A DNA stretch of 64,000 bases from an uncultured Gammaproteobacteria bacterium. GTDB taxonomy: Bacteria > Patescibacteriota > Patescibacteriia > Magasanikbacterales > GWA2-37-8. The position numbers were made by a program, and so were the translations under genes. The notes under the pieces are model-generated. The model worked only from the letters and a program-made list of their open reading frames with translations. It did not search any database and was not told the DNA's origin. The DNA lies in contig CAYTPE010000001.1 in NCBI GenBank assembly GCA_964439885.1, positions 9,031 to 73,030 on the forward strand. The letters run 5' to 3'. This document shows positions 9,334 through 56,145 of the stretch, piece after piece; within the stretch, counting starts at the first letter, position 1, and every line of letters starts with the position of its first letter.

Positions 9334-9379
9334 AAAGTCATTGAAAAATTATTAAGAGATTATTAAAAAGTTATTATAC

Positions 9380-21238: not shown

Positions 21239-22365
21239 TTATGGCGAAGCTCTCTGTCCATCTCGTCTCCTGGAACGGTGCCAAATATATCCCATATCTT
21301 TTTGACTCTTTGCGCAAGCAAACCTACACAGACTGGGAATTATTTGTCGTCGACAACGCGTCGACTGACGAGACAGTTGCTTTGATTCAGAAAGAGCTTG
21401 TCAATTTTCCTTTTGCTTCGCGTGTTACAGTAAACACCACGAATACTGGTTTTGCGGGAGGGCACAACCAAGCGTTCAAAGCTGCGAGCGCTGAGTATTT
21501 TTTGTTACTCAATCAAGACATGTACCTCATGCCCGATTGTTTGGAGAAGATGGTACAGTTTCTCGATGAACATTCTGATGTGGCCGCTGTTTCGCCACGC
21601 CTGATGTGTTGGGCCTTTAGCGAGGATTTAAACGAATTTAAGGTTGATTCAGACAGATTTAGACAGAGTCTTACGCATCAGATTGACGCGCTGGGACTCA
21701 AAATTTTCCGCAATCGGCGAGTGGTGGAGCAGCATACGCGAGAAGAGTGGAGCGCATTTGTCATCCCCGACCATGATCGGGGATCTATCGCAAACGAACC
21801 GCAGAACGTGGATTCCCGTTTGCACGGGAATGACAGTGTCATAGTACTTGAAGTGTTTGGCGTTTCCGGTGCCTTCCCTATGTTGCGCCGTTCCATTATT
21901 AACGAAATTGTCTTTTCCGATGGAACGTTTCTGGATGAATCGTATCATTCGTACAAAGAAGATATGGACCTCGCGTATCGACTGGCTGCTCATGGAACAC
22001 GATCGTACATACTCAGCGATACGGTGGCGTACCACGATCGATCGGGAGCCGGCCCCAAGGAACTTTCCGACTGGGCAGCCGCCAAAAATAAATCCACCCA
22101 ATCGAGTTGGGTGCGCTACCATAGCTACAAAAATCATCTGATGACACTGTACAAAAACGAATACTGGCAGAACGCACTACTTGATGCGCCGTGGATATTG
22201 TGGTATGAAATTAAGAAGTTTGTTTATTTTCTACTGTTTGAACCGCGCGTGCTGAGGGGGTTAGGTGAGGTGTGGAAAATGCGTAAAGATTTGAAGATTA
22301 AAAGATTGAAGATTAAAGAATTAAGAAAGGTTGGTTGGCGGGAAATGAGAAAGTGGTGGCGGTGA
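21235..22365 (+). CDS. family-2 glycosyltransferase (contains an in-frame copy of a 29-nt repeat)
   Basis: LSVHLVSWNGAKYIPYL...FVVDNASTDETV GT2 N-terminus. Nucleotides 21808-21836 are identical to an intergenic MITE-like element at 30594-30622. Confidence 0.75.
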   Translation: MIMAKLSVHLVSWNGAKYIPYLFDSLRKQTYTDWELFVVDNASTDETVALIQKELVNFPFASRVTVNTTNTGFAGGHNQAFKAASAEYFLLLNQDMYLMPDCLEKMVQFLDEHSDVAAVSPRLMCWAFSEDLNEFKVDSDRFRQSLTHQIDALGLKIFRNRRVVEQHTREEWSAFVIPDHDRGSIANEPQNVDSRLHGNDSVIVLEVFGVSGAFPMLRRSIINEIVFSDGTFLDESYHSYKEDMDLAYRLAAHGTRSYILSDTVAYHDRSGAGPKELSDWAAAKNKSTQSSWVRYHSYKNHLMTLYKNEYWQNALLDAPWILWYEIKKFVYFLLFEPRVLRGLGEVWKMRKDLKIKRLKIKELRKVGWREMRKWWR

Positions 22366-27452: not shown

Positions 27453-28025
27453 TTAGTGTTGTACCGGAACCACAGGAGCGGTAGCTGATTTATTTGCGCT
27501 CAGAGTCGCGTCGCGTGTTGCTTTGGCGGCGGCCACTGCAGCATCATATACCTTTTTGGCAGCAACCTTCGCGTCACTGAACGTTTTTTGAGCGGCTTCT
27601 TTTGCTGATTGATATGCTGTGCGAGCCGCAGTTTTTTGATCAGTGGTAGAAGCTGCTTTCATGCTTGTTTCGAAAGTGGCGCGCGTCGATTTGAGAGCGG
27701 CGAGGTAGGTTTCACGCGCGGTTTTAACGCTGGCCTCGCGAGTTTGTGCGGCTGCTTTTACGGCTTCACGATAGGCTTTGCGAGCAGCTTCATTGGCCTG
27801 GATTTTGGCTTTGGCAGCAGCTATTTTTGCCTGGCGAGCTTCTTCGGCAGCCTTACGATCGGCAGCTAATTTTTCTTTTGCAGCCTTTACCGCTTCGCGG
27901 TCGGTCTGCACGGTGGTTTTGGTGGTGGCAGTTTTCTCGGGAGAGGTGTTGGTTTCTGCAAAAGCAGGAGCCAGCACACTGAGCGCCATTACTGCAGAAA
28001 CGGCCAAGGTAACAAATTTTTTCAT
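27453..28025 (-). CDS. secreted Ala/Lys-rich alpha-helical repeat protein
   Basis: Start taken at the internal ATG (MKKFVTLAVSAVMALSVLAPAFA signal peptide). The mature part is low-complexity AKEKLAADRKAAEEARQAKIAAAKAKIQ...-type amphipathic repeats. Confidence 0.5.
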   Translation of the reverse strand: MKKFVTLAVSAVMALSVLAPAFAETNTSPEKTATTKTTVQTDREAVKAAKEKLAADRKAAEEARQAKIAAAKAKIQANEAARKAYREAVKAAAQTREASVKTARETYLAALKSTRATFETSMKAASTTDQKTAARTAYQSAKEAAQKTFSDAKVAAKKVYDAAVAAAKATRDATLSANKSATAPVVPVQH

Positions 28026-28128: not shown

Positions 28129-30528
28129 TTAAAAACTGCGGCCAATAAAATCGACGACATTTTTCCCTACGGTCTCTATACTCTCTGAACTACATTGATC
28201 AATCGTATCACGCGGTGTATCGAGAAAGGAGTATGAGCCATTGATAAGCAAAATGCTCGGAATACCGGCAGTGGTAAGCGTGGTGTGGTCATCGAAAATT
28301 TCTCCGGCGGCGCGACCAGAAAAAATATGAGGGAACTCGGAATTTGCATACTTGGAAAAAGCGCTGGCGAGCGTAACCGCTCCGCCTGAACGCGGATCCT
28401 CGATGTTAACTCGATCATTTTTTCCGCACACTACGTCGAGCACGATGCCAAAGCTTGGCAGCACGGTTGAATAGTACTCGCTCAGGTGCCTGGAAAAATA
28501 CTGCGAGCCAAGCGGCTGCCACAATGCCCACGAGCTGGTTGGCAAACTGGCAATTTCATCGCCTTCTTCGCCGTCAAAGAAAACAAGATCGATTCCATAG
28601 GGAGGGGTGGTAGGGTGAGTACTCAAGTAGCGCGCAATTTCGAGCAGCATGGCCACACCGGAAGCCGAGTTATTGGCGCCCGGTGGAGAAACGAGATAGT
28701 TGCGTTTGTCGAATTTGGCGTACCGCATACTGTCGTAGTGCGTGGCAAGCATGATTCGGCTGGTATTCGTAGGGTTCAAACGACCAATGATATTTTGTAA
28801 ATGAAATACATACCCTTGCGCGTCAGTGTAATCAAACTGTTGCACAGACGTTGATACGCCCAAAGCGCGCAGCTCGGTGACAATAAATTTTTGTTCCTCG
28901 GCATGCCCAGGAGCGCTGAGATAGCGTGGCCCAAAACTGAGTTGCTTTTTTATGATACCAAGCATTTCGTTTCCTTCAATTGTGTCGTGCTCCGTGAGTT
29001 CGTCCTCTGTTAAAAGTGGCGACAAAAAATATTCTACGGGCGCGTAGTTGTCGGTAAAAAGCGGGGTGGCGCTCAAATCAAATCTATCTGGATCGATGCG
29101 ATGAGCGCTGAGGCCAGCAATGAGTGGGTCCGTGCTCTGTAGTACGGTTGGCGCGGAAAAGTTAATGGTCGACGTGCTGTTATAGCCTACAAAAATAATA
29201 TTCTGTGCGCGGGTAGAAGTGGGTGAATCGACAGCAAAAAAATAACTGTTTGGAAAAACAGAACGAAATGTCTTGATCTCCGACATGAGAAAAGAGGGGT
29301 CGCTGCGCGACAGGCTGCCAATAAGATTGGCCATGAAAATGCCTCCAGGAGCAAGCTTTTGTTTGGCAGCGGCAAAAAATTCTTGAGTGGTAAAGTGAGT
29401 CGGGATTGAATAGAGTGAATAGTAAACATCACTAAAAATGATATCGTACCGATGGGGAGTATCGTGCACAAAACGGCGACCATCTACCACAAAATTGGTG
29501 AGCCGGGGAGTGCTGGGAACGGCAAAATATTTTTTTGACAGGTCGAACAAACGTGGCTCAATTTCGGTAACATCAACGGTGGATGATGGAATTTTTTCCA
29601 GCACTGCTTTGGGAATAGAATACGCGCCGCCACCGAGCGCAAGCACGCGTGTGGCGTGGGGAGTAAAGAGGCGATAGAGCGAAATGTACTTTGTATAATC
29701 AAAAGCGAGCTCAGGATTATCCAAAAACATTGCTCCAGAGTTACTACGATCTTGCAGCAGAAAACGCGCAGGGCGACCGCGATAGGTGGTATCGTAAATA
29801 GTCAATTTTTCGTACACACCATCGTGGCTATACACGGTGCCGGCGTTGCCTAGTAGCGACAAAAAATGTAAGCCTACTGTAACAGCGACTACAAGACCAA
29901 GTTTAACAAATGTTTTTTTTTGAGCGCGCAAGCGAATAAGATTCGCGCCTCCCACAACAATAAGCACAGCGGCTACGATTTCCACAATACGATTGACGCC
30001 AAGGTGGGGGATAAGCACAAACCCCGCGCTGAGGCTGCCGGCAATACTACCGGCGGTGGACCAGAAAAAAATATCGCCCGCCACGCTGCCCGCTCCTTTG
30101 TGCGGATATTGCAAGGCCTGCAATTTAACGGAAAATGGCGAGAGCATGCCCAACATAAAACTCGGCAGAAAAAAAAGCAGGAGCGCCATCACGAGTGGGC
30201 CGCTCATGAGCGTGAGTGAGTATCCTACAAAGGGCAGTGCGATAAGTTGGAGTGCGTACATGAGTATCGTGGCCACACCACTGAGCGTTATGAGCCCATA
30301 AAAAAAAGTTTCGTTCGGATATCGATCGGCCACTCGTCCGCCTACATAATATCCAATGCTTAGAGCGGCAAGCACCACACTAATAATGCTCGAAACCGTA
30401 AAAATAGTGTTGCCAAAATAGGGTGACAAAATACGGGTGGCCACCACTTCGATAATAAGCACGCAGGCACCGGTGAGGAAGACCACAAAGGGGAGTAGTA
30501 TTTTTTTTGCATTGATCATATTAAACAA
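28129..30528 (-). CDS. tri-domain membrane protein: N-terminal polytopic domain + spermidine/spermine-synthase-like aminopropyltransferase fold + C-terminal M28-family zinc peptidase domain
   Basis: 799 aa. About 8 N-terminal transmembrane helices, then a spermidine-synthase-like Rossmann segment (VLALGGGAYSIPKAVLEKIPSSTVDVTEIEPRLFDLSKKYF...YDIIFSD). M28 motifs follow (HYDSM, GANNSASGVAMLLEIARYL, FFDGEEGDE). Confidence 0.75.
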   Translation of the reverse strand: MFNMINAKKILLPFVVFLTGACVLIIEVVATRILSPYFGNTIFTVSSIISVVLAALSIGYYVGGRVADRYPNETFFYGLITLSGVATILMYALQLIALPFVGYSLTLMSGPLVMALLLFFLPSFMLGMLSPFSVKLQALQYPHKGAGSVAGDIFFWSTAGSIAGSLSAGFVLIPHLGVNRIVEIVAAVLIVVGGANLIRLRAQKKTFVKLGLVVAVTVGLHFLSLLGNAGTVYSHDGVYEKLTIYDTTYRGRPARFLLQDRSNSGAMFLDNPELAFDYTKYISLYRLFTPHATRVLALGGGAYSIPKAVLEKIPSSTVDVTEIEPRLFDLSKKYFAVPSTPRLTNFVVDGRRFVHDTPHRYDIIFSDVYYSLYSIPTHFTTQEFFAAAKQKLAPGGIFMANLIGSLSRSDPSFLMSEIKTFRSVFPNSYFFAVDSPTSTRAQNIIFVGYNSTSTINFSAPTVLQSTDPLIAGLSAHRIDPDRFDLSATPLFTDNYAPVEYFLSPLLTEDELTEHDTIEGNEMLGIIKKQLSFGPRYLSAPGHAEEQKFIVTELRALGVSTSVQQFDYTDAQGYVFHLQNIIGRLNPTNTSRIMLATHYDSMRYAKFDKRNYLVSPPGANNSASGVAMLLEIARYLSTHPTTPPYGIDLVFFDGEEGDEIASLPTSSWALWQPLGSQYFSRHLSEYYSTVLPSFGIVLDVVCGKNDRVNIEDPRSGGAVTLASAFSKYANSEFPHIFSGRAAGEIFDDHTTLTTAGIPSILLINGSYSFLDTPRDTIDQCSSESIETVGKNVVDFIGRSF

Positions 30529-30551
30529 CCAACAGTGAACGGTCTATTTTT

Positions 30552-30621
30552 TTGTCATTCCCGCCGGAGCGGGAATCTCGGGTATATAACGAAGTGGATT
30601 CCCGTTTGCACGGGAATGACA
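30552..30621. mobile_element. MITE-like double-hairpin element with terminal inverted repeat TTGTCATTCCC / GGGAATGACA
   Basis: TTGTCATTCCCgccggagCGGGAATctcgggtatataacgaagtggATTCCCGtttgcaCGGGAATGACAg. It has the same termini as the element at 36631-36736; the internal 29 nt recur at 21808-21836 and a degenerate copy lies at about 60245-60275. Confidence 0.5.
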
Positions 30622-30685
30622 GACGGTAAATCGGGTGCTATATTCTAATTGTAAACAGTATAGCATGGGGTGTCTATAAAGGAAA

Positions 30686-30716
30686 TAAAAAACACAGCTT
30701 ACGTCTGTGTTTTTTA
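30686..30716. terminator. rho-independent terminator downstream of the minus-strand tRNA-Pro pair
   Basis: AAAAAACACAGcttacgtCTGTGTTTTTT. Confidence 0.5.
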
Positions 30717-30720
30717 TGTG

Positions 30721-30794
30721 TCGGGCTGACACGACTTGAACGTGCGACCTCATGCACCCCATGCATGCGCTCTAGCCAACTGAGCTACAGCCCG
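30721..30794 (-). tRNA. tRNA-Pro (anticodon GGG)
   Basis: 74-nt cloverleaf folded by hand from the reverse complement: acceptor CGGGCUG/CAGCCCG with the bacterial tRNA-Pro hallmark C1:G72, anticodon loop AUGGGGU, T-loop UUCAAGU. Confidence 0.8.
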
Positions 30795-30880: not shown

Positions 30881-30954
30881 TGAAGACTGGTCGGGATACC
30901 GGGATTTGAACCCGGAATCTCGTCGTCCCGAACGACGCGCCTTAGCCAATTAGG
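30881..30954 (-). tRNA. tRNA-Pro (anticodon CGG)
   Basis: 74-nt cloverleaf: acceptor CGGGAUA/UAUCCCG (C1:G72), anticodon stem CGUCG/CGACG with loop UUCGGGA, T-arm CCGGG-UUCAAAU-CCCGG. Confidence 0.8.
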
Positions 30955-31054
30955 CCATATCCCGTTTGAATATCCAGAGCATATCACACTTGGCTTTGCT
31001 TTTCAAGGACATGCGGAGTGTGCTACAATTGCCTCATTCATTTCTCACAATTCT

Positions 31055-33808: not shown

Positions 33809-33900
33809 GCAGTGAATCGTTTACTCCTTATTCTTTACTCTTTACTCTTTTGAAAAAGCATGGTATGATAAGTATGAAATTACATATTTAACTTTTTTCT

Positions 33901-36770: not shown

Positions 36771-38006
36771 ATGTTATTCGAAAATCTCAAATCAGCCTGG
36801 CAAATTATTTCCCGCAACAAAGTGCGGTCGTTTTTGACGATGCTTGGAATTATTATTGGTGTCATGTCAGTCGTCGTCATTATGTCCGTAGGTGCCGGCG
36901 CGCAAAGTCTTATCATCAACCAAATCAATAGCCTTGGATCGAACTTAGTGGGCATCTTACCCGGTAAGTCGGACGACAACGGGCCACCGGCAGCAGTCTA
37001 CGGCATTGTTATTACCACGCTTAAAGATAGCGATGGCACGGCTATATTGAATTCAGGCAACCCTCATGTTGTGGCATACTCGTCATATGTGCGTGGTGCC
37101 GACACGGTAACGACCGATGAATCCAAAACCGATACGACGTTTATGGGTGTGAGTGCATCGTACCCGAATGTGGAAAATATCTCGATGGCCGAAGGGCACT
37201 TCTTTACGCATGATGATGAGGTGGGCGTAGAGCGAACAGCGGTGCTCGGCAGCGCGGTGGCGCATGATTTGTTTGGCGACCAGAGCGCACTCGGACGACG
37301 AATAAAAATTAAAAAAACAAATTTTCAAGTGGTAGGCGTGCTTGCGTCGCGCGGGCAAAGTGGATTCCAAAATCAAGATGATCAAATTCTTGTGCCGGTT
37401 ACGACCGCGCAGAAATTGTTGCTTGGCATCGATCATGTAAATTTTATTCGGGTGAAAATAGATGACGCTGCGTATGTGGATAGCTCGATGGAAGAAATTC
37501 GCTCCATACTGCGTGATCGACACAACATCGTAAACGCGGAAAACGATGACTTTTCGGTTCGCTCCACCAATCAAGGAGTGGATGTGTTGCTGAATATTAC
37601 TAACGCTCTCAAATTTTTTCTCGCTGCCATTGCCGCTATTTCGCTCGTGGTTGGCGGTATCGGCATTATGAATATTATGCTGGCAGCCGTGGAAGAGCGC
37701 ACCAAAGAAATCGGCTTACGAAAAGCCATTGGTGCCAAGCGGCGTAATATTATCAGTCAATTTTTGGTGGAAACGGTACTCATCACGTTTTTGGGGGGTG
37801 CTATTGGCATACTACTCGGTAGTTTGCTCGCGGTCACAGTGGCCAAAGTCGCGCAAGGCATGGGGTATCAGTGGGATTTGGTAATCACTTGGTCGTCGGT
37901 GATACTCGGCTGCGTCGTTTCTATTTCCATTGGCCTCATCTTCGGACTCAACCCAGCACGCCGCGCCGCCGCCCTTGATCCGATGGTGGCGTTACGGTAT
38001 GAATAA
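36771..38006 (+). CDS. ABC transporter permease (MacB/FtsX-like)
   Basis: 411 aa: N-terminal transmembrane helix, large periplasmic domain and a C-terminal FtsX-type 3-helix bundle (LAAVEERTKEIGLRKAIGAKRRNI). Confidence 0.8.
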   Translation: MLFENLKSAWQIISRNKVRSFLTMLGIIIGVMSVVVIMSVGAGAQSLIINQINSLGSNLVGILPGKSDDNGPPAAVYGIVITTLKDSDGTAILNSGNPHVVAYSSYVRGADTVTTDESKTDTTFMGVSASYPNVENISMAEGHFFTHDDEVGVERTAVLGSAVAHDLFGDQSALGRRIKIKKTNFQVVGVLASRGQSGFQNQDDQILVPVTTAQKLLLGIDHVNFIRVKIDDAAYVDSSMEEIRSILRDRHNIVNAENDDFSVRSTNQGVDVLLNITNALKFFLAAIAAISLVVGGIGIMNIMLAAVEERTKEIGLRKAIGAKRRNIISQFLVETVLITFLGGAIGILLGSLLAVTVAKVAQGMGYQWDLVITWSSVILGCVVSISIGLIFGLNPARRAAALDPMVALRYE

Positions 38007-38094
38007 TTATTGAAAAGTTATTAAAAAATTATTAAGAAATTATTGTGTGAAAATATTAAAATAATTTTTCAATAATTTCTTAATAATTTTAAAA
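38004..38094. repeat. AT-rich inverted repeat built from TTATTAAGAAATTATT-type units
   Basis: TTGAAAAGTTATTAAAAAATTATTAAGAAATTATT...AATAATTTCTTAATAATTTTTCAATAATTTT. One arm recurs at 9339-9378 downstream of the epimerase gene. Confidence 0.5.
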
Positions 38095-39411: not shown

Positions 39412-39687
39412 TGTAGTAGCTGGCCTGCCTCGGCTGCTACAGCTTGCTCCATCACCACCGGAGGGTAAGGTGAGAGCACATGCTGTGCAGCCGAGGCGAG
39501 GTCACTTGGCCCTACGCACGTACGTGCGTAGGTAAAGAGAGCCGCGGGCACCCGCTCGTCGCCGCCATGCCTTGTTCGTTCACCGGGGGGCCGGAGTTTT
39601 CCGAACAGAGACACACACGCGGTCACGACTAGCGGGGCCCGAGGCCCGACTGTGCCAACCACGATGAAGCTGTGGCTGGCGTTTGGA
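39412..39687 (-). ncRNA. GC-rich highly structured RNA of unknown class, co-transcribed downstream of tRNA(UCA)
   Basis: About 276 nt at about 65% GC in an AT-rich context, with no plausible ORF. Contains several perfect or near-perfect helices, including the 22-nt palindrome CCTACGCACGTACGTGCGTAGG, GCCTCGGCTGC...GCAGCCGAGGC (11 bp, long-range), GGGCCtcgGGCCC and CCGGccccCCGG. Bounded by the tRNA on one side and a terminator on the other. Confidence 0.25.
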
Positions 39688-39757
39688 TGGGGCCAGGAGG
39701 ATTCGAACCTCCGCATTCCGGTTTGAAGCCGGACGCTCACCTCTGAGCCATAGCCCC
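39688..39757 (-). tRNA. tRNA-like gene with anticodon UCA (UGA-decoding; resembles Trp-type anticodon arm)
   Basis: Hand-folded 70-nt cloverleaf: acceptor GGGGCUA/UGGCCCC, D-arm GCUC-AGAGGU-GAGC (short loop), anticodon stem UCCGG/CCGGA with loop CUUCAAA (U33, U34-C35-A36, A37), 4-nt variable loop, T-arm GGAGG-UUCGAAU-CCUCC, discriminator A. No encoded CCA. Confidence 0.5.
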
Positions 39758-39898
39758 ATACACCAGCACCGCCGAAGCGGTGCCGTCCTCTCTCACGCAC
39801 ATGCATGCGTGAGAAAAAAGCGACCCCCAAACCCGGGATCCGTCCACGGGAGGGAACCCGCGACAAACCACGCGAGATCTGGGGGTCAGTTGGGCACA

Positions 39899-40376: not shown

Positions 40377-40695
40377 CTTGACCTCCTCCGGGTCACCACG
40401 ACCCGTGTCTACCGCAATAGTATATACGCATAATACACTACTACGATCGACACCGGTCAGAAAGATTACATTATTAAAGCGCACTTTATTTAAATAAAAC
40501 ATACTCTAGGGCAGGCTTAATGTCAATAATGACGAAACATTATACGGAATATTCAAGGTGAGAATTTTTTTATACTCCGCAGTTACTTTTTTGGTTTAAT
40601 TAGCGTATATAGTAGCGTGCTATTGGCAGGGTTATGAGTGTGCTTCTGTAAAGCATATTTATAACCCGGCCGATGTCGCTGGGGGGAGGAAGAAG

Positions 40696-40965
40696 ATGGC
40701 CAATCGTCGTGCAAACGTGGTGCCGGGAGCTCCGGCGCCGGTTACTCCAGACCGTACCGCCGGGGCCGATGCCCCGACGCGGTACATGCCTCAGATCGAT
40801 GGCAGCAGTGCGGCCGACAAGCGGCATCGGCCGCTCGCTGACGGGCTGGCAGAGAGCCGGCTCGTCCAGATCGTCTGCCTGCGCCGCTACCTCTGGGTGG
40901 CGGGCGGAATCGCGGCCCTGGAGGCCGCTCTGCTGGCCGCGCTGGCGGCTAAGTTCCTCCTCTAG
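40696..40965 (+). CDS. small (89 aa) protein with Pro/Ala-rich N-terminus and a C-terminal transmembrane helix; GC3-rich codon usage
   Basis: GGGGGAGGaagaagATG ribosome-binding site. C-terminal RLVQIVCLRRYLWVAGGIAALEAALLAALAAKFLL. Followed by a strong 11-bp GC hairpin (GGGGTCTCGCC...GGCGAGACCCC). Confidence 0.4.
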   Translation: MANRRANVVPGAPAPVTPDRTAGADAPTRYMPQIDGSSAADKRHRPLADGLAESRLVQIVCLRRYLWVAGGIAALEAALLAALAAKFLL

Positions 40966-41086
40966 GAGGCTGACCCCGCGGGGTCTCGCCCGTGAGCGCT
41001 TTCGAGCGACCGGCGAGACCCCCGGGTCTCACTACTCCACGTATTGCTTTTTAAGCCGTGGGGTGATAAGGTTTGAGTGTTGTGTG

Positions 41087-41199
41087 AAAAGAATAAAGAG
41101 TAAAGAATAAAGAATAATAAACGAAACCACCACTCTTTACCTGCCTGCGTAGGCAGGCTCTTTACTCTTTACTCTTTACTCTTTACTCTTTACTCTTTC
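41087..41199. repeat. inverted heptamer tandem arrays (TAAAGAR x3 ... CTCTTTA x6) flanking a central GC hairpin, immediately upstream of dnaG
   Basis: aaaGAATAAAGAGTAAAGAATAAAGAAtaa ... GCCTGCgtagGCAGGC ... CTCTTTACTCTTTACTCTTTACTCTTTACTCTTTACTCTTTC. Confidence 0.6.
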
Positions 41200-41205
41200 T
41201 CATCC

Positions 41206-46257: not shown

Positions 46258-49200
46258 ATGCATTTGGGAAGTGCTCGTACAATAGCTGCACAATTAGGCC
46301 GCATTACCGGCTATTTTTTGCTTTTTGTACTTGCTTTAGGGGGCCTTTTTGTTGATCCGTTTGTATCGACAGCTGCCACTGGTGTACCTAAAATTTTCAC
46401 CTATCAGGGTCGTTTGCTTGATGGGGCGGGGAATTTGCTTGGTGGCAATGGTACCAACTATTGTTTCCGTTTCTCGCTGTACGACAACGCCACCGTCGGG
46501 CAGGGCGCAAAGGTATGGCCGGCAGGAGTTCCGTCTACCATGACGCTACAAGTTAAGAGCGGTGTTTTCAACGGCGCAATCGGCGATCTTGCTGCGGGAG
46601 GGGATTTGCTTGATTATAATTTTCAGGATTCCGATGAGGTGTACTTGAACGTAGAAGTAGCAGCCCAGGTGGGTGGCTCATGCGCGGGTGTGGCATTCGA
46701 AACACTGGCTCCACGTCAGCGTGTGACTGCTAGCGGTTATGCCATCAACGCGAACACAGATGGCGGATTTACCACATCGCAGATTGCAACAGGCAGCCAG
46801 ATTCCCGTGCACACCAATGGTGCTATCGTGCTTGGTGGTGCCACTGCCGGGCTCAGTGCTACCAACGCAAACCCGCTTCTTTTGCAGGGGAGTGGTAGTG
46901 GTGACATTCAATTTTTTTCTGCACTGAATAAACTTTCTTCTGCCGGTAATTTAACATTGGCCGGATCACTCACTGCCAACGGCGCACTTCTCATCAACAA
47001 TGACGCGACTATTACTGGCACAACGACGTTGGCAACAACGAGTATTTCCAAAGCAACAATTGCGAATGCTACGGTGAATAATTTAACTGTAACGGGGGTG
47101 TGTTTTGGTTGTGGTGGGGGGGGGGCGGCAGGTGGGGTGAACACATCAACGGCAGGATACATGGCGTATTATCTGAATGGCACAAGCGTAACGGGCACAA
47201 GCATGGTGACCTTTGCTGGTAACACATTTACGGTTTCAGGTTTGTCTGTATTTACTGCTACCGCAACTTTTGCCACAACAAGCATTACGAACGCCGCTAT
47301 TGGCTCTGCTTCAGTAGGAAATTTGGTAGCTACAAACAGTACATCGACAAATAGCTTTGCTGAGGGGCTTGCTTATACCAATTTGTCTGGTGTCAATGCT
47401 ACTTCGACAAATTTGTTTGCGTCACAATTTAATTTTGTGAATGCAAATGGAACGAGTCTGACTTCTACGAATGCATTTTTTTCTAATTTAGCTGTAGGTA
47501 ATTTCAGTCCGACGAATTTGTCGACTTCTAACATTACCACTACCAATTTTGTCGCGACGGGCGCGGTGAGTCTGCCAGTTAACTCGGTGACCGACGCGAT
47601 GGTTTCGAACTCTTTGACTATTGACAACACGGGAAATATTTCCGCTACCGCTATCAATTCGGGAACACTTGGTAACAATGCTGTCACGTTGGCTCTCGGA
47701 TCTTTTGGCTCGATCACTGGAGCGCTTGGAGATGCCAACGTAGCGGACAATCTTACCATCAACGGTGGCACTATTAACAACACAACGATTGGCGCGTCGA
47801 GCCCCTCCACGGGTGTGTTTACGAACGCGACAGCTACCAATTTTGTTGCCTCGAATGTTACCACTACTAATTTGGCAGTGACGGGAGCACTAAGTGTGAC
47901 CTCACTCAACCCCACGAATTTGGCTTGGGTAAACGCCACGGGAACGAACAGTATTCTGAACAATGTAACAAGTACGAATTTGTCCGTCTCTGGCTTAACC
48001 ACTCTCGCCAACACCACCTTGACCAACGCCACCTCCACCAACTTCAACACCGTTGGCCTCACCTTCACCAACGCCACGGGCACCAACAGTGTCTTCACGA
48101 ACGCTACCAGTACCAACCTCTTTAGCACTGGCCTTGCCTTCACCAACTTAAACGGTACGAATGCCACCTCCACCAACTTCTTTGCCACCAACCTCGCGAG
48201 CCTTGGCCTGACCAGCACCTACGGCAACCTCTCCTTTATCACCGCCACCGGTGTCACCTCCACCAACGCGAGCTTTACGAACCTCAGTGCTGCCACCTTC
48301 AACCCCACCAATCTCACCTGGACCAACGCCACGGGGACCAACAGCGTCCTGACCAATGTGACCAGCACCAACCTCGCCGTCAGTGGCCTGGTTGCCTTAA
48401 CAGGGAACACCACCTTGACCAACGCCACCTCCACCAACCTCTTCTCAACCGGCCTCGCCTTCACCAACCTCTCTGGTACCAACGGAACAAGTACCAATTT
48501 CTTTGCCACGAACCTCGCGAGCCTTGGCATTACGTCCACGTATGGCACCATTACCTTCTTAACAACCAGCGGCATCACCTCAACCAACGCGAGCTTGACC
48601 AACGTTACCTCCACCAACCTGTCCGTCTCTGGCTTAACCACTCTCGCCAACACCACCTTGACCAACGCCACCTCCACCAACTTCAACACCGTTGGCCTCA
48701 CCTTCACCAACGCCACGGGCACCAACAGTGTCTTCACGAACGCTACCAGTACCAACCTCTTTAGCACTGGCCTTGCCTTCACCAACTTAAACGGTACGAA
48801 TGCCACCTCCACCAACTTCTTTGCCACCAACCTCGCGAGCCTTGGCCTGACCAGCACCTACGGCAACCTCTCCTTTATCACCGCCACCGGTGTCACCTCC
48901 ACCAACGCGAGCTTTACGAACCTCAGTGCTGCCACCTTCAACCCCACCAATCTCACCTGGACCAACGCCACGGGGACCAACAGCGTCCTGACCAATGTGA
49001 CCAGCACCAACCTCGCCGTCAGTGGCCTGGTTGCCTTAACAGGGAACACCACCTTGACCAACGCCACCTCCACCAACCTCTTCTCAACCGGTTTGGCATT
49101 TACTAATCTCAATGGTACCAATGGAACCAGCACCAACTTCTTTGCCACCAACCTCAGCAGTCTTGGCAGTACTTCCACCTACGGTAACATCTCCTTCATC

Positions 49201-52200
49201 ACGGCTAGTGGCATCACATCGACTAATGGTAATTTCACTAATTTAACAGCTTCGAACTTCATTCCAACCAATCTCACCTGGGTGAGTGCCACCGGTACCA
49301 ACACCGTTCTAACCAACGCCACATCAACCAACTTAAATACGGTTGGGTTAACCTTTACGAATGCCACGGGGACCAACGCTGTCTTGACCAACGCCACGTC
49401 AACCAACCTCTTCTCAACAGGTCTGGCATTTACTAACTTGAACGGCACGAACGCAACGAGCACCAACTTTTTTGCCACCAACCTAAGTAGTCTCGGGCTC
49501 ACCACTACGTATGAGAAAAGTACATTCCTTGTAGCGACAAATGCTACTTCAACTAATTCTTTTGTCACTAATCTATCAAGTCTAGGCATAACATCCACAT
49601 ACGCAAATCTTGGTTTCTTGGTAGGTACTAATATTACTTCAACAAATCAATACAGCAACGGTCTCACCTTTAATATCGCCACAGGTACCTCTATCACTAC
49701 TACAAATGCATATATCGCAAGTTTGGTCGTCGGCACATGTACGGGTTGTGGTGGCGGTGCGGCAAGCGGTGGTGTAAATACTTCGACAGCTGGAAATTTT
49801 GCTTATTATCAGGGTGCCAGCTCAGTCACCGGTACATCTGCCCTTACCTTGTCTGGTACGAATATTACTGCGAATGGCGCAGTAGCCTTAACTGCTACTA
49901 CCACCGCCACCAATCGTTTTATTAACACCATATCAAGCGGCTCAAATATATCAGTGGTCGGCAGCGTTGCTCTTGCCAACTCAGGTTCTAAACCATACAA
50001 CCTAGTACTTCGAGGACGGTATGCCTATGTAACAAATTTCGCTAGTTCTACCATATCTGTGGTTGATTTAAGCAATCCGGCAGCACCAACTGTAATTAAT
50101 ACAATTAGCGTTGGAATTAACGTCGGGCCAACAGGCATCGATAATGATAGTAGATATTTGTATGTTGCCGCGTCGTCTACGCCAAGCCTTTATATTTACG
50201 ATCTTTCAACTGCAGCAGCCCCGTCTCAAGTTGGTCAGTCGCTTTTGTCTTTTTCACCAACAGATATAGGAGTAGATGGTCATTTTGTCCTACTTCCGTC
50301 TCCGAGCTTTGGTCAGGTCCAAATTCGTGATATTAAATATCCAAATAATGTATCATCTGTTCCTGGCTTGGGTGGTGTTACTGGTGGAACCCGCATTACT
50401 ATCTTTGGTAAATATGCCTACTACTCGGGCTCTTCCAATCTGTATATTGCTGACGCCTCCAACCCTGCCTCAATGGTTGTTAATGGTAGTATTGCTATGC
50501 CTAATCAGGTTAATGGCGTGTATGTTGTAGACCGATACGCGTACGTATTAAATGGAGGCTCGTTAAACGTAGTTGATATTAGTACGCCCAGCGCTCCAGT
50601 AAATGTTGCGACCACTTCAATCGGCGGCACTCTCTGGGGAGTGGCTGGTACTGGCCGCTATCTCTACATTACAGATAAAGCCAACAGCTCCGTTGATGTC
50701 GTAGACGTGGCAAGCTCTACCAACCCAGTCTTAGTAAAAACCATTACAGGCTTTGCTTCACCGCAAGGCATCGCCGTTAACGGAAGATACGCCTACGTTG
50801 TAGATAATGGTGATGGTACTCTCTATGTAATTGATTTACAGGGAACGGAAGTGAGCTCTCTGGTGGCATATTCTGCCGATGTCGGTTCACAACAAATTAG
50901 AAATGATCTCTACATTGGCAACAAAGCTTTTGTGCTTGGAGGGTTGACTGTTGGTAGTTTGGGCATCGCGTCAGCCGGAGATCTTGTGGTCCAAGGCACC
51001 GGCAATTCTACACTAGCCGGCGCTTTGGTTGTTTCGTCATCCATTTCAGCAAGTGCTTTTTCTGTGTCTGATAATTCATTTTATACAAGTGTAGGAACAA
51101 CCTATATAACAAATCTAAACGCTACTAGCATTACCTCCACCAACCTCTTTTCTACCGGTCTCACCTTTACTAACGCTACAGGTACCAAGGCCATTTTCAC
51201 GAGCGCCACCTCGACGAATTTGTATACAACAAACGGCGTGTTTACTAATGCCACTACTACCAACCTGTATTCAAACGGGTTGGTCTTCTCACGCGCCACA
51301 AGTACGGCATTAACTTCCACCATCGCATACATCGGCAGCCTGACAGTCGGCAGCTGTTCAGGTTGTGGCGGCGGAGTCTCTTTGAGCGGCAATAATACAT
51401 GGAGCGGGCTAAATATATTTACCAATACTACCACATTAGCCACCACCACCATTTCAGGTATATTTGATGGTGATGCTAAATTCGTCCCAGCTAGCCCGAA
51501 TGGGAATGGTTTCCAAGTAATGAATTTAGAAAACGATGAGACGCTTTTCAGCGTCGGCCCTTCAGCAGGGAATGCTGATTTTGTGGCGATAGGGGATAGA
51601 AGTGCCGCGCTTACGACCACTACACTCTTATATGTTGATACCAAATCTGATGCTGGCGACCCCACGCCTCCACTGAGTGCGGACGGTGCTATCTATTATA
51701 ATTCGAATAGCAAAAAATTCCGGTGTTACGAAAATTCGTCATGGAAAAATTGTGATAGCGCTGCTAATGCTCAAACATTTACCGCCACAAGTACCTGGAA
51801 CAAGCCAAACGGTGTTACATATGTTACCGTGCGTTGTATTGGCGGTGGCGGTGGCGGTGGCGGCGGAAGTTCGAAGGCGGCTGGTGGTGCACGAGCTGGG
51901 GGCAGTGGCGGTGGCGGTGGCTCTGTGCTCATCAGAACATTTTTAGCTTCTGACGTAACATCTAGTATTGGTATTACTGTTGGCCAGCCAGGTGGGGCTG
52001 GCGCCGGCGGCGTAAACGGAGCCAACGGCACCAGCGGCAGCGCTGGTACTGCATCCAGTTTTGGCACGTATGTCACCTGTTATGGTGGTGGCGGCGGTTT
52101 TGGGGGCACAACTGCAGTGAATTCAGGTGGTACAGGTGGTGGTCACGGTGGTGCTGGTAATAGTGGCAGTGGTTCAGCTTCCACTGGCGGCTTGCCGGCT

Positions 52201-52704
52201 ACTGCCAGCAACGCAGTTGGTTTGTCGGGACAGGGTTCTGGTAGCAGCGCGGGTACGGCTTCTGGCCAACCATCCGAATGGGGTGGTGCTGCTGGTGGCG
52301 GATCTTCAATCACAGTAGCTAGTCAAAATGGCGGTACCTCGCTCTGGGGTTGTGGTGGCGGTGGCGCAGGTGGAAATATTACTACTGGTAACGTGGCCAA
52401 TGCACCAGGCGCTGGTGGTAACACCGGTGTTTGGGTTACGGCTGGCGGCGGCGGTGGAGCGGCTGGTTCAAGCGGTGCGGCTGGTACTAACGGCACCGAC
52501 GGAACGGGAGGAACCTCCTTGTTGTGCGGTAAAGGCGGCGGCGGTGGTGGATCTTCCACAAACGGTGCTAACAATGGCGGTACCGGTGGTAACGGTGGCG
52601 CTCCTGGCGGCGGCGGTGGTGGTGGTGGAGCCGGTACTACTACTGTTAATGGAGGTACTGGTGGCAGAGGAGGGGCAGGTGAGGTCGATGTATGGGCCTG
52701 GTAA
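46258..52704 (+). CDS. giant (2148 aa) secreted/cell-surface repeat protein: signal-anchor, Thr/Asn/Ser-rich ~106-aa tandem repeats, YVTN-type beta-propeller repeats, Gly-rich C-terminal domain
   Basis: N-terminal hydrophobic segment [15 protein letters not shown]. Low-complexity repeats of the form [46 protein letters not shown].... [29 protein letters not shown]... repeats (YVTN/LVIVD-like) follow. The final ~300 aa are about 45% Gly ([18 protein letters not shown]...[25 protein letters not shown]). Confidence 0.8.
47981..49258 (+). repeat. near-identical 639-bp (213-aa) tandem duplication inside the giant gene, itself composed of ~106-aa sub-repeats
   Basis: TGTCCGTCTCTGGCTTAACCACTCTCGCCAACACCACC... 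occurs at 47981 and again at 48620. Hundreds of following nucleotides are identical between the copies. Confidence 0.8.
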
Positions 52705-52728: not shown

Positions 52729-53859
52729 ATGCGTATAAAAATTTTTTCTTCCCTTCTCCTTGTTCTTGTTGCAACACTCCTCGTGCCAGCAGCTCATGTG
52801 TCAGCCGCCAGTTCGGTGTATTACAACCCTGATTCGAAAGAATTAATTATTAATGGCGATTGCAGTGGTGATACAGCCAACATTGTGATGTACAAAAGAG
52901 CTACTAATACCGGATGGGGAAGCTTTTCCGCACCCTGTGTGAATAATCAATTTTCACTCACCGAGAAAATGACCGAATGGAAAATCGATGAAGGCCAGTA
53001 TGATGTGAAAATTGTCGACAATGCCGCACAAAAGAAGAATAATGGAAAATTTTTTAATTTTGGCAACAATGACAATCGAGTTACCGTCAACATTACAAAT
53101 TTAGTTCCGCCTGCTCCTGAGAGTCCGCTCTCCCAAGTTTCCACATCAAGCGACACCACAACGACACCACCTGCCGGTTTTACCGGTGTAGGCAGTTTAA
53201 GTACATCCACCGAGCAGGCCATAGCCGACCAACAATCATTGCTCGAACAGCTCTTCGGTGTTTTTAAGGCTATCGAAGAGTCCATTGTTCGAGTAACTAC
53301 ACTCTTTGCCGAAAGTGTCCGAACCACACTGATAAGCACAGTACAGTTCTTTAGTAAAAACATTACTGTCTTACCCGAAGGTTCAGTCACACTTCCATCC
53401 GGAACGAATCAAATCACCGGCCATGCCGAAATTCCCGCTGATGCCGATCATATTTTCATATCAAACACGCAGGTTACCGTCGACTCGCGCATTATTCTCA
53501 CGCCGCTGCACAACATTATCGCACCGTTAGCCGTAACCAACAAAATCGCCGGACAAGGCTTCGAGGTTAGCATCGTCGCCCCCCTCAAAGAACCTTTACC
53601 CTTCGATTGGGTACTCTTCCAGACGTATTCAGCCGGTGGGGAAGTGTATACGATTCCGGTCAATCTGCCAGCGCAAAATGCAGTACCCGATCAAAATAAT
53701 CAAGTAAATACAAGCACACCACCCACTGATGCGACGGTTTCTGATGGTACTAGTACTACACCTGATGCTGTTGTGCAGTCGCCGGTGCCAGTAGAAGAAG
53801 GCGGTAACTCTCCATCCGCACCTGGGGAACAAAGTAACAGTTCTACGCCGGCACAATAA
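52729..53859 (+). CDS. secreted hypothetical protein (signal peptide, Thr/Pro-rich linker and C-terminal tail)
   Basis: MRIKIFSSLLLVLVATLLVPAAHVSAASS signal peptide. No recognisable domain. Confidence 0.55.
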   Translation: MRIKIFSSLLLVLVATLLVPAAHVSAASSVYYNPDSKELIINGDCSGDTANIVMYKRATNTGWGSFSAPCVNNQFSLTEKMTEWKIDEGQYDVKIVDNAAQKKNNGKFFNFGNNDNRVTVNITNLVPPAPESPLSQVSTSSDTTTTPPAGFTGVGSLSTSTEQAIADQQSLLEQLFGVFKAIEESIVRVTTLFAESVRTTLISTVQFFSKNITVLPEGSVTLPSGTNQITGHAEIPADADHIFISNTQVTVDSRIILTPLHNIIAPLAVTNKIAGQGFEVSIVAPLKEPLPFDWVLFQTYSAGGEVYTIPVNLPAQNAVPDQNNQVNTSTPPTDATVSDGTSTTPDAVVQSPVPVEEGGNSPSAPGEQSNSSTPAQ

Positions 53860-53872
53860 TTCGATATAGTGT

Positions 53873-54307
53873 ATGAAATTCATACGTCAGCATGTGTTGG
53901 TTTTTGTTGTCGGAGCGATACTTTGTGTCGGTGGGGGATTTGTCGTGTATCAAAAAAAATGGGCGCCATTTGATTTTACCTCTCTTGTTCAAAAGCAGTT
54001 AACCGATGATGATAAACAGCGAATCGTACAAGTGGTAAGCCGGGTGGTGGAGCTCCCACGAAATGAAATTCCCGAGATAAATTTTGTCACCAAACTCGAT
54101 CGTCTCAAAACCCAAAGTTTTTTTGCTCAAGCCCAAACAGGCGATGTGGTGCTTATCTATCGCCAAGCCAAAAAAGCCTTTTTGTATCGATCCACTACCC
54201 ATCGACTTGTCAATCAGGCAACAGTTGTTCTGGTGTCTCAACCACCCGATGATACACTACTGCCCGATGGTGCTATCCCAGGGTTTGCGTTGCCCGGCAT
54301 GCACTAG
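53873..54307 (+). CDS. small N-terminally membrane-anchored protein (paralog pair member 1)
   Basis: 144 aa: transmembrane anchor, then ...ELPRNEIPEINFVTKLDRLKTQSFFAQAQTGDVVLIYRQAKKAFLY. Paralogous to the next gene. Confidence 0.5.
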   Translation: MKFIRQHVLVFVVGAILCVGGGFVVYQKKWAPFDFTSLVQKQLTDDDKQRIVQVVSRVVELPRNEIPEINFVTKLDRLKTQSFFAQAQTGDVVLIYRQAKKAFLYRSTTHRLVNQATVVLVSQPPDDTLLPDGAIPGFALPGMH

Positions 54308-54388
54308 CTCATTGTGGACAACCACTTTACTCGATTACAAAAATCATTTATACTGTAAGCATATTAACTATTAAATTTTACTTTCCGT

Positions 54389-54820
54389 ATGGAAACACGA
54401 GAAAAAATTATCATAGCGGTATTGGCAGCATTGGTGCTTGTTTTAGGTGGTACCACTTTTTATTACTCCAAAAAATTCGTTCAAGCCAAAGAAAATCCGC
54501 AGCAGTATGTGCAGCAAACAGTTGACTCGCTCGTCAAACAGGTTGGTCAGCTTATGGAGCTCCCGGCAGGTGAAGTTCCAACCGTTGCTACTGTTGTTGA
54601 TCCGGAAAAATTAAAAGGCCAACCATTTTTTGCTCATGCATCAGTAGGGGACAAAGTGCTCATTTACGGCAATGCTCGTAAAGTTGTCTTGTATAACCCA
54701 AACACAAACAAGATCGTCGAAGTTGCACCGCTCAGTATCGGCAATCCAACCGGCACGAACCAGCCAGCTCCTACGCCAACTCCAACTCAGCCTACTGAAA
54801 CTGACACTAACAAACAATAG
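54389..54820 (+). CDS. small N-terminally membrane-anchored protein (paralog pair member 2)
   Basis: 143 aa: ...ELPAGEVPTVATVVDPEKLKGQPFFAHASVGDKVLIYGNARKVVLY. Shares the ELP..E.P....V.....LK.Q.FFA.A..GD.VLIY..A.K..LY pattern with 53873-54307. Confidence 0.5.
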   Translation: METREKIIIAVLAALVLVLGGTTFYYSKKFVQAKENPQQYVQQTVDSLVKQVGQLMELPAGEVPTVATVVDPEKLKGQPFFAHASVGDKVLIYGNARKVVLYNPNTNKIVEVAPLSIGNPTGTNQPAPTPTPTQPTETDTNKQ

Positions 54821-54843
54821 TAGTTTATCTAAAGGGGACGTGT

Positions 54844-56145
54844 ATGCGCCTGGCTATTCTCAGCGTATGCCTGCTCGGCTGCATACTCACTCTGAGCGCG
54901 GTCGCGCGAGCTGAAACATTTTCTTCTCCGAGTTACACTTCTGCCGACCCGGTAGTGACTCTTCATGGTGGCTACGCGGCTTCACCGAGCTTTCAATTAT
55001 TTGGAAGTTCTGGCCCCATCGTCATCGGCGAAAGTACCAGTACGAACTTTGTGTATCGTACTGGTTTTCTTTATTTTCCCTTAGTAACCGCGCCGATCGC
55101 TGTGGCCACCCCCGGTAACGCTTCCGTAAATCTCACCTGGACAGCTGCCACAGCGGCACTCGGCTACACCATTAGTGGTTATGATGTCGGCGTGTCTGCG
55201 GCGGACGGAGGTCCGTACTCTTATTCAAATGTGGGAGACGTGCTGGCGCACACCGTGCAAGGGTTGCCCAACAACAGCGTTCGATATTTTGTGGTTAGAG
55301 CGAATGATTTTTATGGCAATCCTATTGCCACGTCATCGCAAGTTTCCGCTACACCTGTTGGCGGAAATAATAATCAAAATAATGCTGGAGGTGGTGGTGG
55401 GGGTGGGGGTGGGGGAGGCGCTGTCGCTACTACCATTCAGGCATCCGGCATTACGTTCCCCAGTGCTTTGGTGTATCTCGTGAAGGATGGTGTGATCATT
55501 GCTACTGCCGAGAGCACCGCGCAGGGCACCTTTTCTATCGGCCAGTCCGTGAGTCCAGGCACAGCGGTTTTTACCATCTATGCCGCTGATAAAAATGGCA
55601 ATCGTACCGGTTCCGTATCGTATACTACTGATGTCCAGTTCGGATCTACGACAAAGATAGAAAATATTGTGTTACCGCCTCTTGTTACAACCGATAAAGA
55701 GTCCGTCAAACCGGGCGATATCATTACCATCACCGGCAGAGGCGCGCCGAACTCGAATTCCGTTATCACCATTGATGAAATACCTGGTTTGCAGTTCAAA
55801 GTCACCCTCGATTCGAGTGGTACATTCTCCACTCCCTTCAAAGTGGCGGATCTCGGCAACGGTGCCTACAGCGTGCGCGCTCGGCTGGAGCGCAATGGGA
55901 CAGTGACGGGTCTCAGTCAACTGATACAATTTATTGTTGGCAATAAAACAGTTGATCGAACCGAACAACAGCAATGTTCAGAGGCAGATTTTAATTGTGA
56001 CGGTAAAGTTAATTTGATTGATTTTTCCATTTTGTTGTTCTGGTTTGAAAAAAAGAATCCACCGGATGCCATCGATCTGAATCATGACGGCAAAGTGGAT
56101 ATTATTGATTTTAGTATTCTTATGTACTATTGGACGGGTGGATAA
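54844..56145 (+). CDS. secreted protein with fibronectin type III-like domain, poly-Gly linker and C-terminal dockerin-type (type I) calcium-binding repeats
   Basis: Signal peptide MRLAILSVCLLGCILTLSAVARA. Fn3-like APIAVATPGNASVNLTWTAA..GYTISGYDV. Two dockerin-like repeats DFNCDGKVNLIDFSILLFWF and DLNHDGKVDIIDFSILMYYW. Confidence 0.65.
   Translation: MRLAILSVCLLGCILTLSAVARAETFSSPSYTSADPVVTLHGGYAASPSFQLFGSSGPIVIGESTSTNFVYRTGFLYFPLVTAPIAVATPGNASVNLTWTAATAALGYTISGYDVGVSAADGGPYSYSNVGDVLAHTVQGLPNNSVRYFVVRANDFYGNPIATSSQVSATPVGGNNNQNNAGGGGGGGGGGGAVATTIQASGITFPSALVYLVKDGVIIATAESTAQGTFSIGQSVSPGTAVFTIYAADKNGNRTGSVSYTTDVQFGSTTKIENIVLPPLVTTDKESVKPGDIITITGRGAPNSNSVITIDEIPGLQFKVTLDSSGTFSTPFKVADLGNGAYSVRARLERNGTVTGLSQLIQFIVGNKTVDRTEQQQCSEADFNCDGKVNLIDFSILLFWFEKKNPPDAIDLNHDGKVDIIDFSILMYYWTGG

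Follow-up and report, generated by a model that had tools for sequence, protein, structure and literature searches.

The 64,000-nucleotide stretch of contig CAYTPE010000001.1 analysed here (the window, numbered from its first letter) carries on its minus strand, at positions 28129 to 30528, a gene encoding a membrane protein that almost certainly comprises three domains: an N-terminal half-transporter of the major facilitator superfamily (MFS) type, a domain with the fold of spermidine synthase (SpeE), and a C-terminal domain of the M28 metallopeptidase fold resembling type II glutaminyl cyclases (QCs). The canonical zinc site of the C-terminal domain has very likely been lost in this protein. 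As a whole, the results are best explained by an outward-facing core that would modify amines, joined to a zinc-free accessory domain that would bind peptide N-termini or act in a cyclase-like manner, an explanation to which an even chance is given. The points of interest are the predicted outward position of a domain of the S-adenosylmethionine (AdoMet) type, the repeated paired loss of zinc ligands, and the breadth of the family in bacteria of the Candidate Phyla Radiation (CPR).

Domain architecture and distribution of the family

The gene is a single continuous open reading frame (ORF) with no change of frame, encoding 799 residues when counted from the TTG codon at 30528; this is the length given in an earlier interpretation made from the letters alone (the sequence-only reading). 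The ATG codon at 30519, three codons downstream, yields 796 residues and is the likelier start; the identical database protein (P0001) has 796 residues. Pfam searches identified Spermine_synth at residues 288-446 (E=1.8e-9, above the cut-off) and Peptidase_M28 (PF04389) at residues 579-794 (E=1.1e-25, above the gathering score). The NCBIfam model NF037959, named 'fused MFS/spermidine synthase', scored 256.8 bits (cut-off 40) over residues 21-500, which align with positions 2-479 of its 480. These matches bear out the proposed fusion, in which a polytopic N-terminus of MFS type is joined to domains of the SpeE and M28 folds. The full-length AlphaFold2 model (mean predicted local distance difference test, pLDDT, 89.6; predicted template-modelling score, pTM, 0.87) showed seven long helices followed by two globular domains. 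Since a pTM of this value is high for a three-domain protein, the model suggests a fixed mutual arrangement of the domains.

The 120 best matches in a database of 5.8 billion proteins, which constitute the homologue set for the counts given below, were all approximately 780-830 residues long, contained both Pfam domains and were 48-57% identical to the query over 94-99% of its length. Named members belong to Parcubacteria, Falkowbacteria, Saccharimonadales, Roizmanbacteria and similar groups, and the database names conflict, reading 'fused MFS/spermidine synthase', 'M28 family peptidase' or 'glutaminyl-peptide cyclotransferase'. A scan of one genome per GTDB species returned 331 related loci, the best 80 of which were tallied; none of these shares a genome with another. 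The three-domain form was found at 53 of the best 80, comprising 34 with all active-site residues canonical, 12 with Asn at position 620 and a residue other than His at 770, and 7 that are more degenerate, mostly from Acidobacteriota on contigs of up to 2.9 Mb. The two-domain form, ending where the SpeE-like domain ends, was found at 22 and is 51-57% identical to the query, compared with 39-53% for the three-domain forms. The other 5 loci encode proteins of approximately 670-700 residues with a short C-terminal domain. In L053, L060, L064, L065 and L076, from metagenome-assembled genomes (MAGs) of Acidobacteria and Deferribacteres, this domain is approximately 100 residues shorter than M28 and contains no M28 catalytic residues, and some of these short forms still have the Cys pair described below. 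The short forms may be a step on the way to loss of the domain, or their C-terminus may be a different addition.

Across the relatives the C-terminal domain was thus found intact, ligand-less, heavily degenerate, shortened or absent, while the MFS lobe and the SpeE-like core never vary. The domain is regarded as accessory because relatives lack it or carry it shortened or further degenerate. The family consists of conserved stand-alone membrane proteins of many Patescibacteria/CPR classes and of some Acidobacteriota; the fusion is real and old, and its C-terminal domain comes and goes. The sequence-only reading had raised the possibility that the domains lie in different frames or that a corrected assembly would split the ORF. 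An artefact of this kind was rejected, its probability being negligible, on the grounds that the frame is uninterrupted, that length and domain order are the same in more than 120 independent homologues, and that the architecture recurs at 53 of the best 80 loci, in separate genomes. The same counts confirm that the three-domain architecture is conserved.

By score and layout the query fits the known, uncharacterized family NF037959. Members of NF037959, or 'membrane-bound spermidine synthases' of the COG4262 type, have the same order of MFS lobe, seventh transmembrane helix (TM7) and SpeE fold, and two-domain members 51-57% identical to the query come from the same phyla; the query differs in its extra C-terminal cyclase-like M28 domain of approximately 290 residues. 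The name of the family is an annotation only. A literature search recovered no paper describing the family, in agreement with the earlier statement that the class is poorly understood, and no functional study of the fusion, of membrane-bound SpeE-like proteins or of Rv2601. Transcriptome papers on TM7x mention only a gene carrying the label 'spermidine synthase', whose expression rises when the host is first contacted.

The zinc site of the C-terminal domain

Sequence searches with the C-terminal domain recovered the bacterial type II QCs 3tc8, 3gux, 6qro and 6qql with E-values of 1e-27 to 1e-22, animal cyclases at approximately 1e-10 and the Vibrio aminopeptidase (3b3t) at 7.6e-4. Foldseek target TM-scores (TMt) were 0.84-0.86 for cyclases versus approximately 0.73 for true aminopeptidases. 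The domain is cyclase-like and nearest to the bacterial type II enzymes, although structure alone is compatible with an aminopeptidase as well. The earlier assignment to M28 is therefore correct as to the fold and the Pfam family, but the nearest kin are type II glutaminyl cyclases and not aminopeptidases. The closest relatives in both sequence and structure are proven cyclases, and the bacterial type II enzymes compared include PgQC (6qql), TfQC (6qro), 3tc8, 4fuu/7d1d, 7d1b and 7d18. The query differs from these bacterial enzymes in having a GEE motif of the animal and aminopeptidase type where the bacteroidal type has ED, and in being fused to a polytopic protein where the cyclases are lipid-anchored. 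In addition, Leu769 occupies the position of the Trp that precedes the ligand His in cyclases (PgQC Trp298, human Trp329), at which the family has mostly Phe or Tyr; this Trp is described as a cyclase feature (PMC7948796). The likeness of the query to classical M28 aminopeptidases (Vibrio/Aeromonas AAP, 1amp/1rtq; Streptomyces SGAP, 1cp7) is much weaker in sequence than that to the cyclases.

Residues were mapped with printed alignments and the published description of PgQC, in which zinc is ligated by Asp149 (followed by Gly150), Asp183 and His299 (PMC7948796); the equivalent ligands in human QC are D159, E202 and H330. The query has Asn620 and Asp770 at the first and third of these positions, leaving Glu655, at the position of PgQC Asp183, as the only cyclase-type ligand, with two of the three replaced. 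Considered as the five M28 ligands His-Asp-Glu-Asp-His, the site retains His597, Glu655 and Asp698, while the bridging Asp is replaced by Asn620 and the last His by Asp770. Without the bridging Asp and a second His, the di-zinc centre of classical M28 aminopeptidases cannot form. The sequence-only reading had described the zinc-ligand motifs as intact; this does not hold, the Asn620 of GANNSASG and Asp770 having replaced the ligand Asp and His.

In the homologue set, position 620 is Asp in 98 of the 120 proteins and Asn in 22, and it is Asp in all solved relatives; at position 770 there are 96 His, 19 Ala, 3 Asp and 1 Tyr. An Asn at 620 is always accompanied by a residue other than His at 770, a perfect co-variation, and the full pattern HDEED-H-H was present in 94 of the 120. 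The N/A, N/N, N/D and N/Y states fall into separate similarity clusters (at least two or three) and occur also in stand-alone relatives of the domain; the Asn/Asn and Asn/Tyr pairs were found in other CPR clades as well as in the stand-alone relatives. The pair found in the query is common to P0002, P0036 and the fragment P0124, and sequencing error was rejected as its source on this ground. Among the Asn620 variants His597, Glu654, Glu655, Asp698, Asp746/747 and His748 are invariant, and the ratio of identity in the M28 domain to identity in the SpeE domain was 0.88, versus 0.90 in canonical members. The similar ratios and the invariance of the other active-site residues indicate that the C-terminal domain is still constrained in these variants. 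The Acidobacteriota forms have additionally lost Glu654, Glu655, His748 and His770. The repeated paired loss of ligands within a conserved domain constitutes a natural experiment on whether cyclase-type M28 domains can function, or be put to some other use, in the absence of zinc. GPAA1 of the glycosylphosphatidylinositol (GPI) transamidase and the transferrin receptor also contain degenerate M28-like ectodomains of membrane complexes; these are distant, eukaryotic and have different partners, so that the parallel is one of principle and not of descent. Nicastrin and nicalin are further examples.

Judged from its sequence, the protein is probably not a canonical zinc M28 peptidase. The C-terminal domain may be read as having been kept for a role without canonical zinc, either cyclase-type chemistry through Glu654, Asp698 and Asp746 or binding only. 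In the sequence alignment these three residues occupy the positions of the cyclase acid network (E201/D248/D305 of human QC); in the 2021 account of Huang and co-workers in J Mol Biol, this network is said to separate cyclases from M28 peptidases. The domain could be an active glutaminyl cyclase, working without canonical zinc or with another metal. As in Bacteroidetes, it would form pyroglutamate from Gln or Glu at the N-termini of newly exported proteins; the fusion would then be merely a membrane tether and the SpeE-like core would do an unrelated job. The retained acid network, the constraint on the domain in the Asn620 variants and the signal anchors of its stand-alone relatives (see below) are consistent with this proposal, Asp770 could still ligate a metal, and type II cyclases may not all depend on a metal (PMC7948796). 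However, zinc chelators inhibit all tested bacteroidal and human cyclases (PMC7948796), Leu769 stands where PgQC has Trp298, and relatives drop the whole domain or its Glu pair and keep the gene. An active cyclase is on balance considered unlikely.

A crude scan of the flanking genes for Gln following a signal peptide (the 'Q-rule') was swamped by false positives, the first transmembrane helix (TM1) of the target itself included, and left no usable signal for CPR. In the same scan, Gln was exposed at 8 of 19 predicted cleavage sites in the locus group classed as 'other/degenerate', mostly Acidobacteriota (the MAG loci L035-L041); many of the 8 sites belong to mutual orthologues. The result hints at a Q-rule-like habit in Acidobacteriota, although their fused M28 domain has lost its catalytic residues.

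The SpeE-like domain, membrane topology and candidate functions

Gly299-Gly301, Tyr303, Glu322, Asp349-Gly350 and Asp367 of the SpeE-like domain are conserved in the family and invariant in the homologue set. In an alignment of 85 sequences drawn from all forms of the family, two-domain and degenerate forms included, Tyr303, Asp349 and Asp367 were invariant in 85 of 85 and position 322 was always acidic (Glu in 78, Asp in 7). Alignment with SpeE of E. coli and Synechococcus revealed that the query retains the glycine loop, Glu322 (which binds ribose), Asp349-Gly350 and the catalytic Asp367, the last aligning with the first Asp of 'SDCTDP' in the E. coli enzyme. The Asp of the GGGDG motif is replaced by Ala302, a position that is never Asp in the family (A/V/I/S), and the second Asp of the DxxD motif by Tyr370, where the family has Y/F/H/S. 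In SpeE, the Asp of GGGDG binds the aminopropyl amine of decarboxylated AdoMet (dcAdoMet) and excludes AdoMet, and the second Asp of DxxD holds the far amine group of the diamine substrate. The query thus lacks two of the three aspartates that mark aminopropyltransferases, while all residues lining the adenosyl pocket are kept.

The scores against the SpeE equivalog models were four to six times below cut-off in every case: 48.4 bits against 249.55 for TIGR00417, 47.8 against 260 for PRK00811, 72.9 against 472 for PRK03612 and 73.9 against 304 for PRK04457. The spermidine synthase label is unsupported because of Ala302, Tyr370 and these scores, and the protein is probably not a true spermidine synthase. 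The nearest solved proteins were the uncharacterized 3gjy of C. glutamicum (E=1e-16) and the C-terminal domain of METTL13 (5wcj, E=3.5e-8), a cytosolic N-terminal methyltransferase. In both of these, as in the query, the two signature Asp residues are replaced, in contrast to SpeE of E. coli (3o4f), T. maritima (1inl) and Synechococcus (6qmm), which have Asp at both positions. A further difference from SpeE is the location of the domain, predicted to be outside the cell, where we know of no dcAdoMet. The polyamine synthesis entertained by the sequence-only reading is unlikely in view of the two substitutions, the scores and this location, and the domain looks like an AdoMet-pocket transferase for some other amine.

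The combined active-site results bear on the bifunctional enzyme that the sequence-only reading had envisaged, in which an active synthase for polyamines or other alkyl transfer would work together with an active zinc aminopeptidase outside the cell. The two Pfam matches exceed their cut-offs, most relatives have all five M28 ligands (the HDEED-H-H pattern), and the catalytic Asp367 and nucleotide pocket of the query are intact. Nevertheless, two zinc-ligand positions and two of the three SpeE signature positions carry other residues, the equivalog scores lie far below their cut-offs, and the C-terminal domain is closest to cyclases and not to aminopeptidases, making such an enzyme improbable. 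The query resembles in fold a SpeE, a complete MFS transporter, a di-zinc M28 enzyme and a zinc-dependent type II cyclase, and falls outside the definition of each.

The N-terminal domain, polytopic and of MFS type as had been proposed, is a single lobe and not a complete transporter. Seven helices were predicted, of which approximately 180 residues align to one lobe of MFS structures, and Pfam MFS_1 matched 30 of 45 family members (best E 5e-7). A complete MFS transporter has two six-helix lobes with 12 transmembrane helices and a central substrate path, so the N-terminus is half an MFS transporter plus one extra helix. Conserved features include a buried Glu27 in TM1, an outer loop RxLSPxxGNT (residues 32-41) following TM1, and a motif-A-like inner loop GGRVADRYP (residues 63-71) between TM2 and TM3. 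In MFS proteins motif A is the loop between TM2 and TM3 and is cytoplasmic.

The prediction places the N-terminus inside and the two soluble domains beyond TM7 outside the membrane, at its outer face, an arrangement considered probable. In the homologue set Lys and Arg together number on average 9.0 in the segments predicted to be inside (N-terminus plus the loops that follow TM2, TM4 and TM6) versus 1.4 in the outer loops, and the motif-A-like loop falls on the predicted inner side. TM7 was hydrophobic in 205 of 205 sequences and no hydrophobic segment follows it, so that both soluble domains would lie on the same side, predicted to be the outside. Exactly two Cys residues follow TM7 in 113 of the 120 homologues; both (Cys701 and Cys779) are in the C-terminal domain and none is in the SpeE-like part. 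The pair is retained even in the degenerate Acidobacteriota forms, and both Cys are absent in the stand-alone relative P0130. This pattern is as expected of a disulfide, and a Cys701-Cys779 bond is probable. The stand-alone relatives of the C-terminal domain (P0121, P0125, P0127, P0130 and P0137; 300-330 residues, E down to 1e-61) start with a charged stretch and a single hydrophobic helix, that is, a signal anchor. PgQC, the nearest relative that has been characterized, is anchored at the inner membrane on its outer side (PMC7948796; PMC10653852). The extracytoplasmic M28 domain suggested by the sequence-only reading is thus also what seven helices and the positive-inside rule predict.

The opposite topology was retained as an alternative because the intact AdoMet-type pocket would otherwise face a compartment with no known donor. 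With the soluble domains in the cytoplasm, the protein would be an AdoMet-dependent transferase anchored in the membrane, such as a methyltransferase for amines of lipids or proteins, and its M28-like partner domain would be cytosolic. The invariant pocket residues, a donor present only in the cytoplasm and the likeness to the cytosolic methyltransferase domain of METTL13 speak for this arrangement. It conflicts with the distribution of Lys and Arg, with the position of GGRVADRYP between TM2 and TM3, with the count of seven helices rather than six or eight, with a Cys pair that co-varies while the SpeE part is Cys-free, and with the signal anchors of the C-terminal domain relatives. A cytoplasmic location is therefore distinctly unlikely.

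In the preferred explanation, with the soluble domains outside, the conserved job would belong to the MFS lobe and SpeE-like core, which would most likely alkylate (methyl or aminopropyl type transfer) or bind a primary amine at the outer surface of the membrane. The half-transporter, probably a homodimer, would hand over a cationic donor or the substrate, and the cyclase-like domain would be a membrane-tethered accessory recognizing free peptide N-termini. In most relatives the latter is probably catalytic, forming pyroglutamate or acting as an aminopeptidase; in the present organism it would be a zinc-free cyclase or a non-catalytic binding domain. Any specific mechanism is tentative at best. 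The boldest version is an export-coupled surface alkyltransferase, in which the MFS lobes, as a homodimer, would deliver a cationic donor (AdoMet or a related compound) outward, directly into the SpeE-fold domains, and free amines, such as the N-termini of surface or host proteins, would be alkylated while held by the zinc-free cyclase-like domain. Such an enzyme is very improbable; if real, it would be the first bacterial AdoMet-dependent chemistry outside the cytoplasmic membrane and a trait common to CPR episymbionts.

Several points weigh against the preferred explanation. The set Asn620, Glu655 and Asp770 could still bind some different metal in place of zinc, and a zinc-free site is not proof of an inactive one. 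The topology is drawn from rules and models only, and the members of the family are known from sequence and models alone. We know of no supply of donor outside the bacterial cell for an outward AdoMet-type pocket, a gap that argues either against the predicted topology or for a novel supply route. A single MFS lobe is not known to act as a transporter on its own.

CPR bacteria are tiny and host-dependent with a surface biology that is largely unknown, and the protein, encoded by a single gene, is kept across many of their classes. If the predicted topology is true, the widespread 'spermidine synthase' label misleads for the whole family and an AdoMet-type pocket facing the cell exterior needs explanation. 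For annotation, neither polyamine synthesis nor a secreted peptidase activity should be concluded from the presence of the protein in these genomes.

Gene context and other features of the window

Table 1. Features of the gene, its product and its upstream region, in order of position
Feature	Residues	Position	Strand	Remark
Stop codon TAA		28129-28131	-	End of the ORF
Linker helix and M28-fold domain	511-799	28132..28998	-	Resembles type II glutaminyl cyclases
Cys779		28192..28194	-	Other half of the conserved Cys pair
Asp770 (GAT)		28219..28221	-	'FLDT' versus 'WHT' in relatives; at ligand His (PgQC His299, human QC His330)
Cys701		28426..28428	-	Half of the sole conserved Cys pair of the soluble part
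Glu654-Glu655		28564..28569	-	Retained catalytic Glu and one retained zinc-ligand carboxylate
Asn620 (AAC)		28669..28671	-	Motif 'GANN'; at zinc-ligand Asp (PgQC Asp149, human QC Asp159, bridging Asp of M28)
SpeE-fold domain (class I Rossmann)	229-510	28999..29844	-	
Asp367		29428..29430	-	Equivalent of SpeE catalytic Asp (first Asp of DxxD); family-invariant
GGGAYS	299-304	29617..29634	-	Glycine-rich nucleotide loop; Ala302 for the Asp of GGGDG
Seven predicted transmembrane helices	1-228	29845..30528	-	Six-helix MFS lobe and TM7
Palindromic repeat element		30545..30630	-	Probable 5' leader, directly upstream of the start codon
Promoter-like site TAGACA-17-TACAAT		30648..30676	-	Consensus match only
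Terminator-like hairpin		30685..30717	-	Closes the upstream tRNA-Pro unit
Two tRNA-Pro genes		30720-30794 and 30888-30964	-	Upstream of the gene, same strand

The two tRNA-Pro genes, previously described as divergent from the gene, are co-oriented with it and lie upstream, with the hairpin, the promoter-like site and the palindromic element in between (Table 1). Since the terminator-like hairpin ends the tRNA-Pro unit, the gene is considered its own transcription unit; with its own promoter-like site and no conserved gene neighbourhood, it appears autonomous. The 5' leader folds much better than shuffled sequences (z=-6.9), and an Rfam search with it returned no riboswitch and no matching family. 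The palindromic element, of approximately 75-85 nucleotides with two GGGAAT hairpins (CTGTCATTCCCGTGCAAACGGGAATCCAC...GATTCCCG(n6)CGGGAATGACA), is present twice in the window, the second copy being at 21750-21845, and the copies have a 29-nucleotide exact stretch in common (21808-21836 = 30594-30622). The second copy is in-frame within a glycosyltransferase ORF (21241-22365), where it encodes ...VIPDHDRGSIANEPQNVDSRLHGNDS..., a placement that resembles the in-frame palindromic elements of Rickettsia.

The neighbourhood was analysed on three long contigs and at 82 loci with flanks of 3-6 kb, and no conserved partner gene was found among them; the most recurrent neighbours, IF-2 and a small unannotated ORF of 157 residues, were each present at 8 of the 82 loci. 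Nearby genes in the window encode a glycosyltransferase, a nucleotidyltransferase, TerC-like, patatin and PilT-like proteins and a CCA-adding enzyme. Gene context gives no functional clue. Directly downstream of the gene, at 27453-28025 on the minus strand, is a gene for an Ala/Lys-rich secreted protein of 190 residues; its signal peptide is clear (MKKFVTLAVSAVMALSVLAPAFA|ETNT...), and Pfam gave no match. A longer version of this ORF, with 235 residues, overlaps the end of the studied gene and its start is probably not real.

Two further tRNA calls were made in the window. A 75-nucleotide tRNA at 39684-39758 (minus strand) has the anticodon UCA, which would read UGA, and was called tRNA-SeC by ARAGORN; it is too short for a selenocysteine tRNA, and Rfam scores it as an ordinary tRNA at 69.5 bits. 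Of the 47 long ORFs in the window, 5 still end in TGA, in some cases within an ATGA overlap of start and stop codons, and for this reason the genome does not appear to be fully recoded. An 89-nucleotide 'tRNA-Pro(tgg)' called by ARAGORN at 40887-40975 (plus strand) was not found by Rfam at gathering score and overlaps a doubtful ORF at 40673-41110; it may be a miscall, a tRNA with an intron or another RNA.

An ORF of 2148 residues at 46258-52704 (plus strand) contains tandem repeats of approximately 320 and 640 nucleotides, some copies of which are 97-100% identical, and Gly-rich stretches. It is followed at 52729-59145 by several genes with signal peptides, and the whole is probably a large cluster of surface protein genes. 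Two short, AT-rich tandem motifs each occur in more than one intergenic region, just 3' of genes, one with an 11-nucleotide period (AAAGTTATTAAAAAATTATTAAGA...) at 9334-9375 and 38003-38044 and another with a 7-nucleotide period (TTTACTC repeats) at 33820-33850 and 41161-41205.

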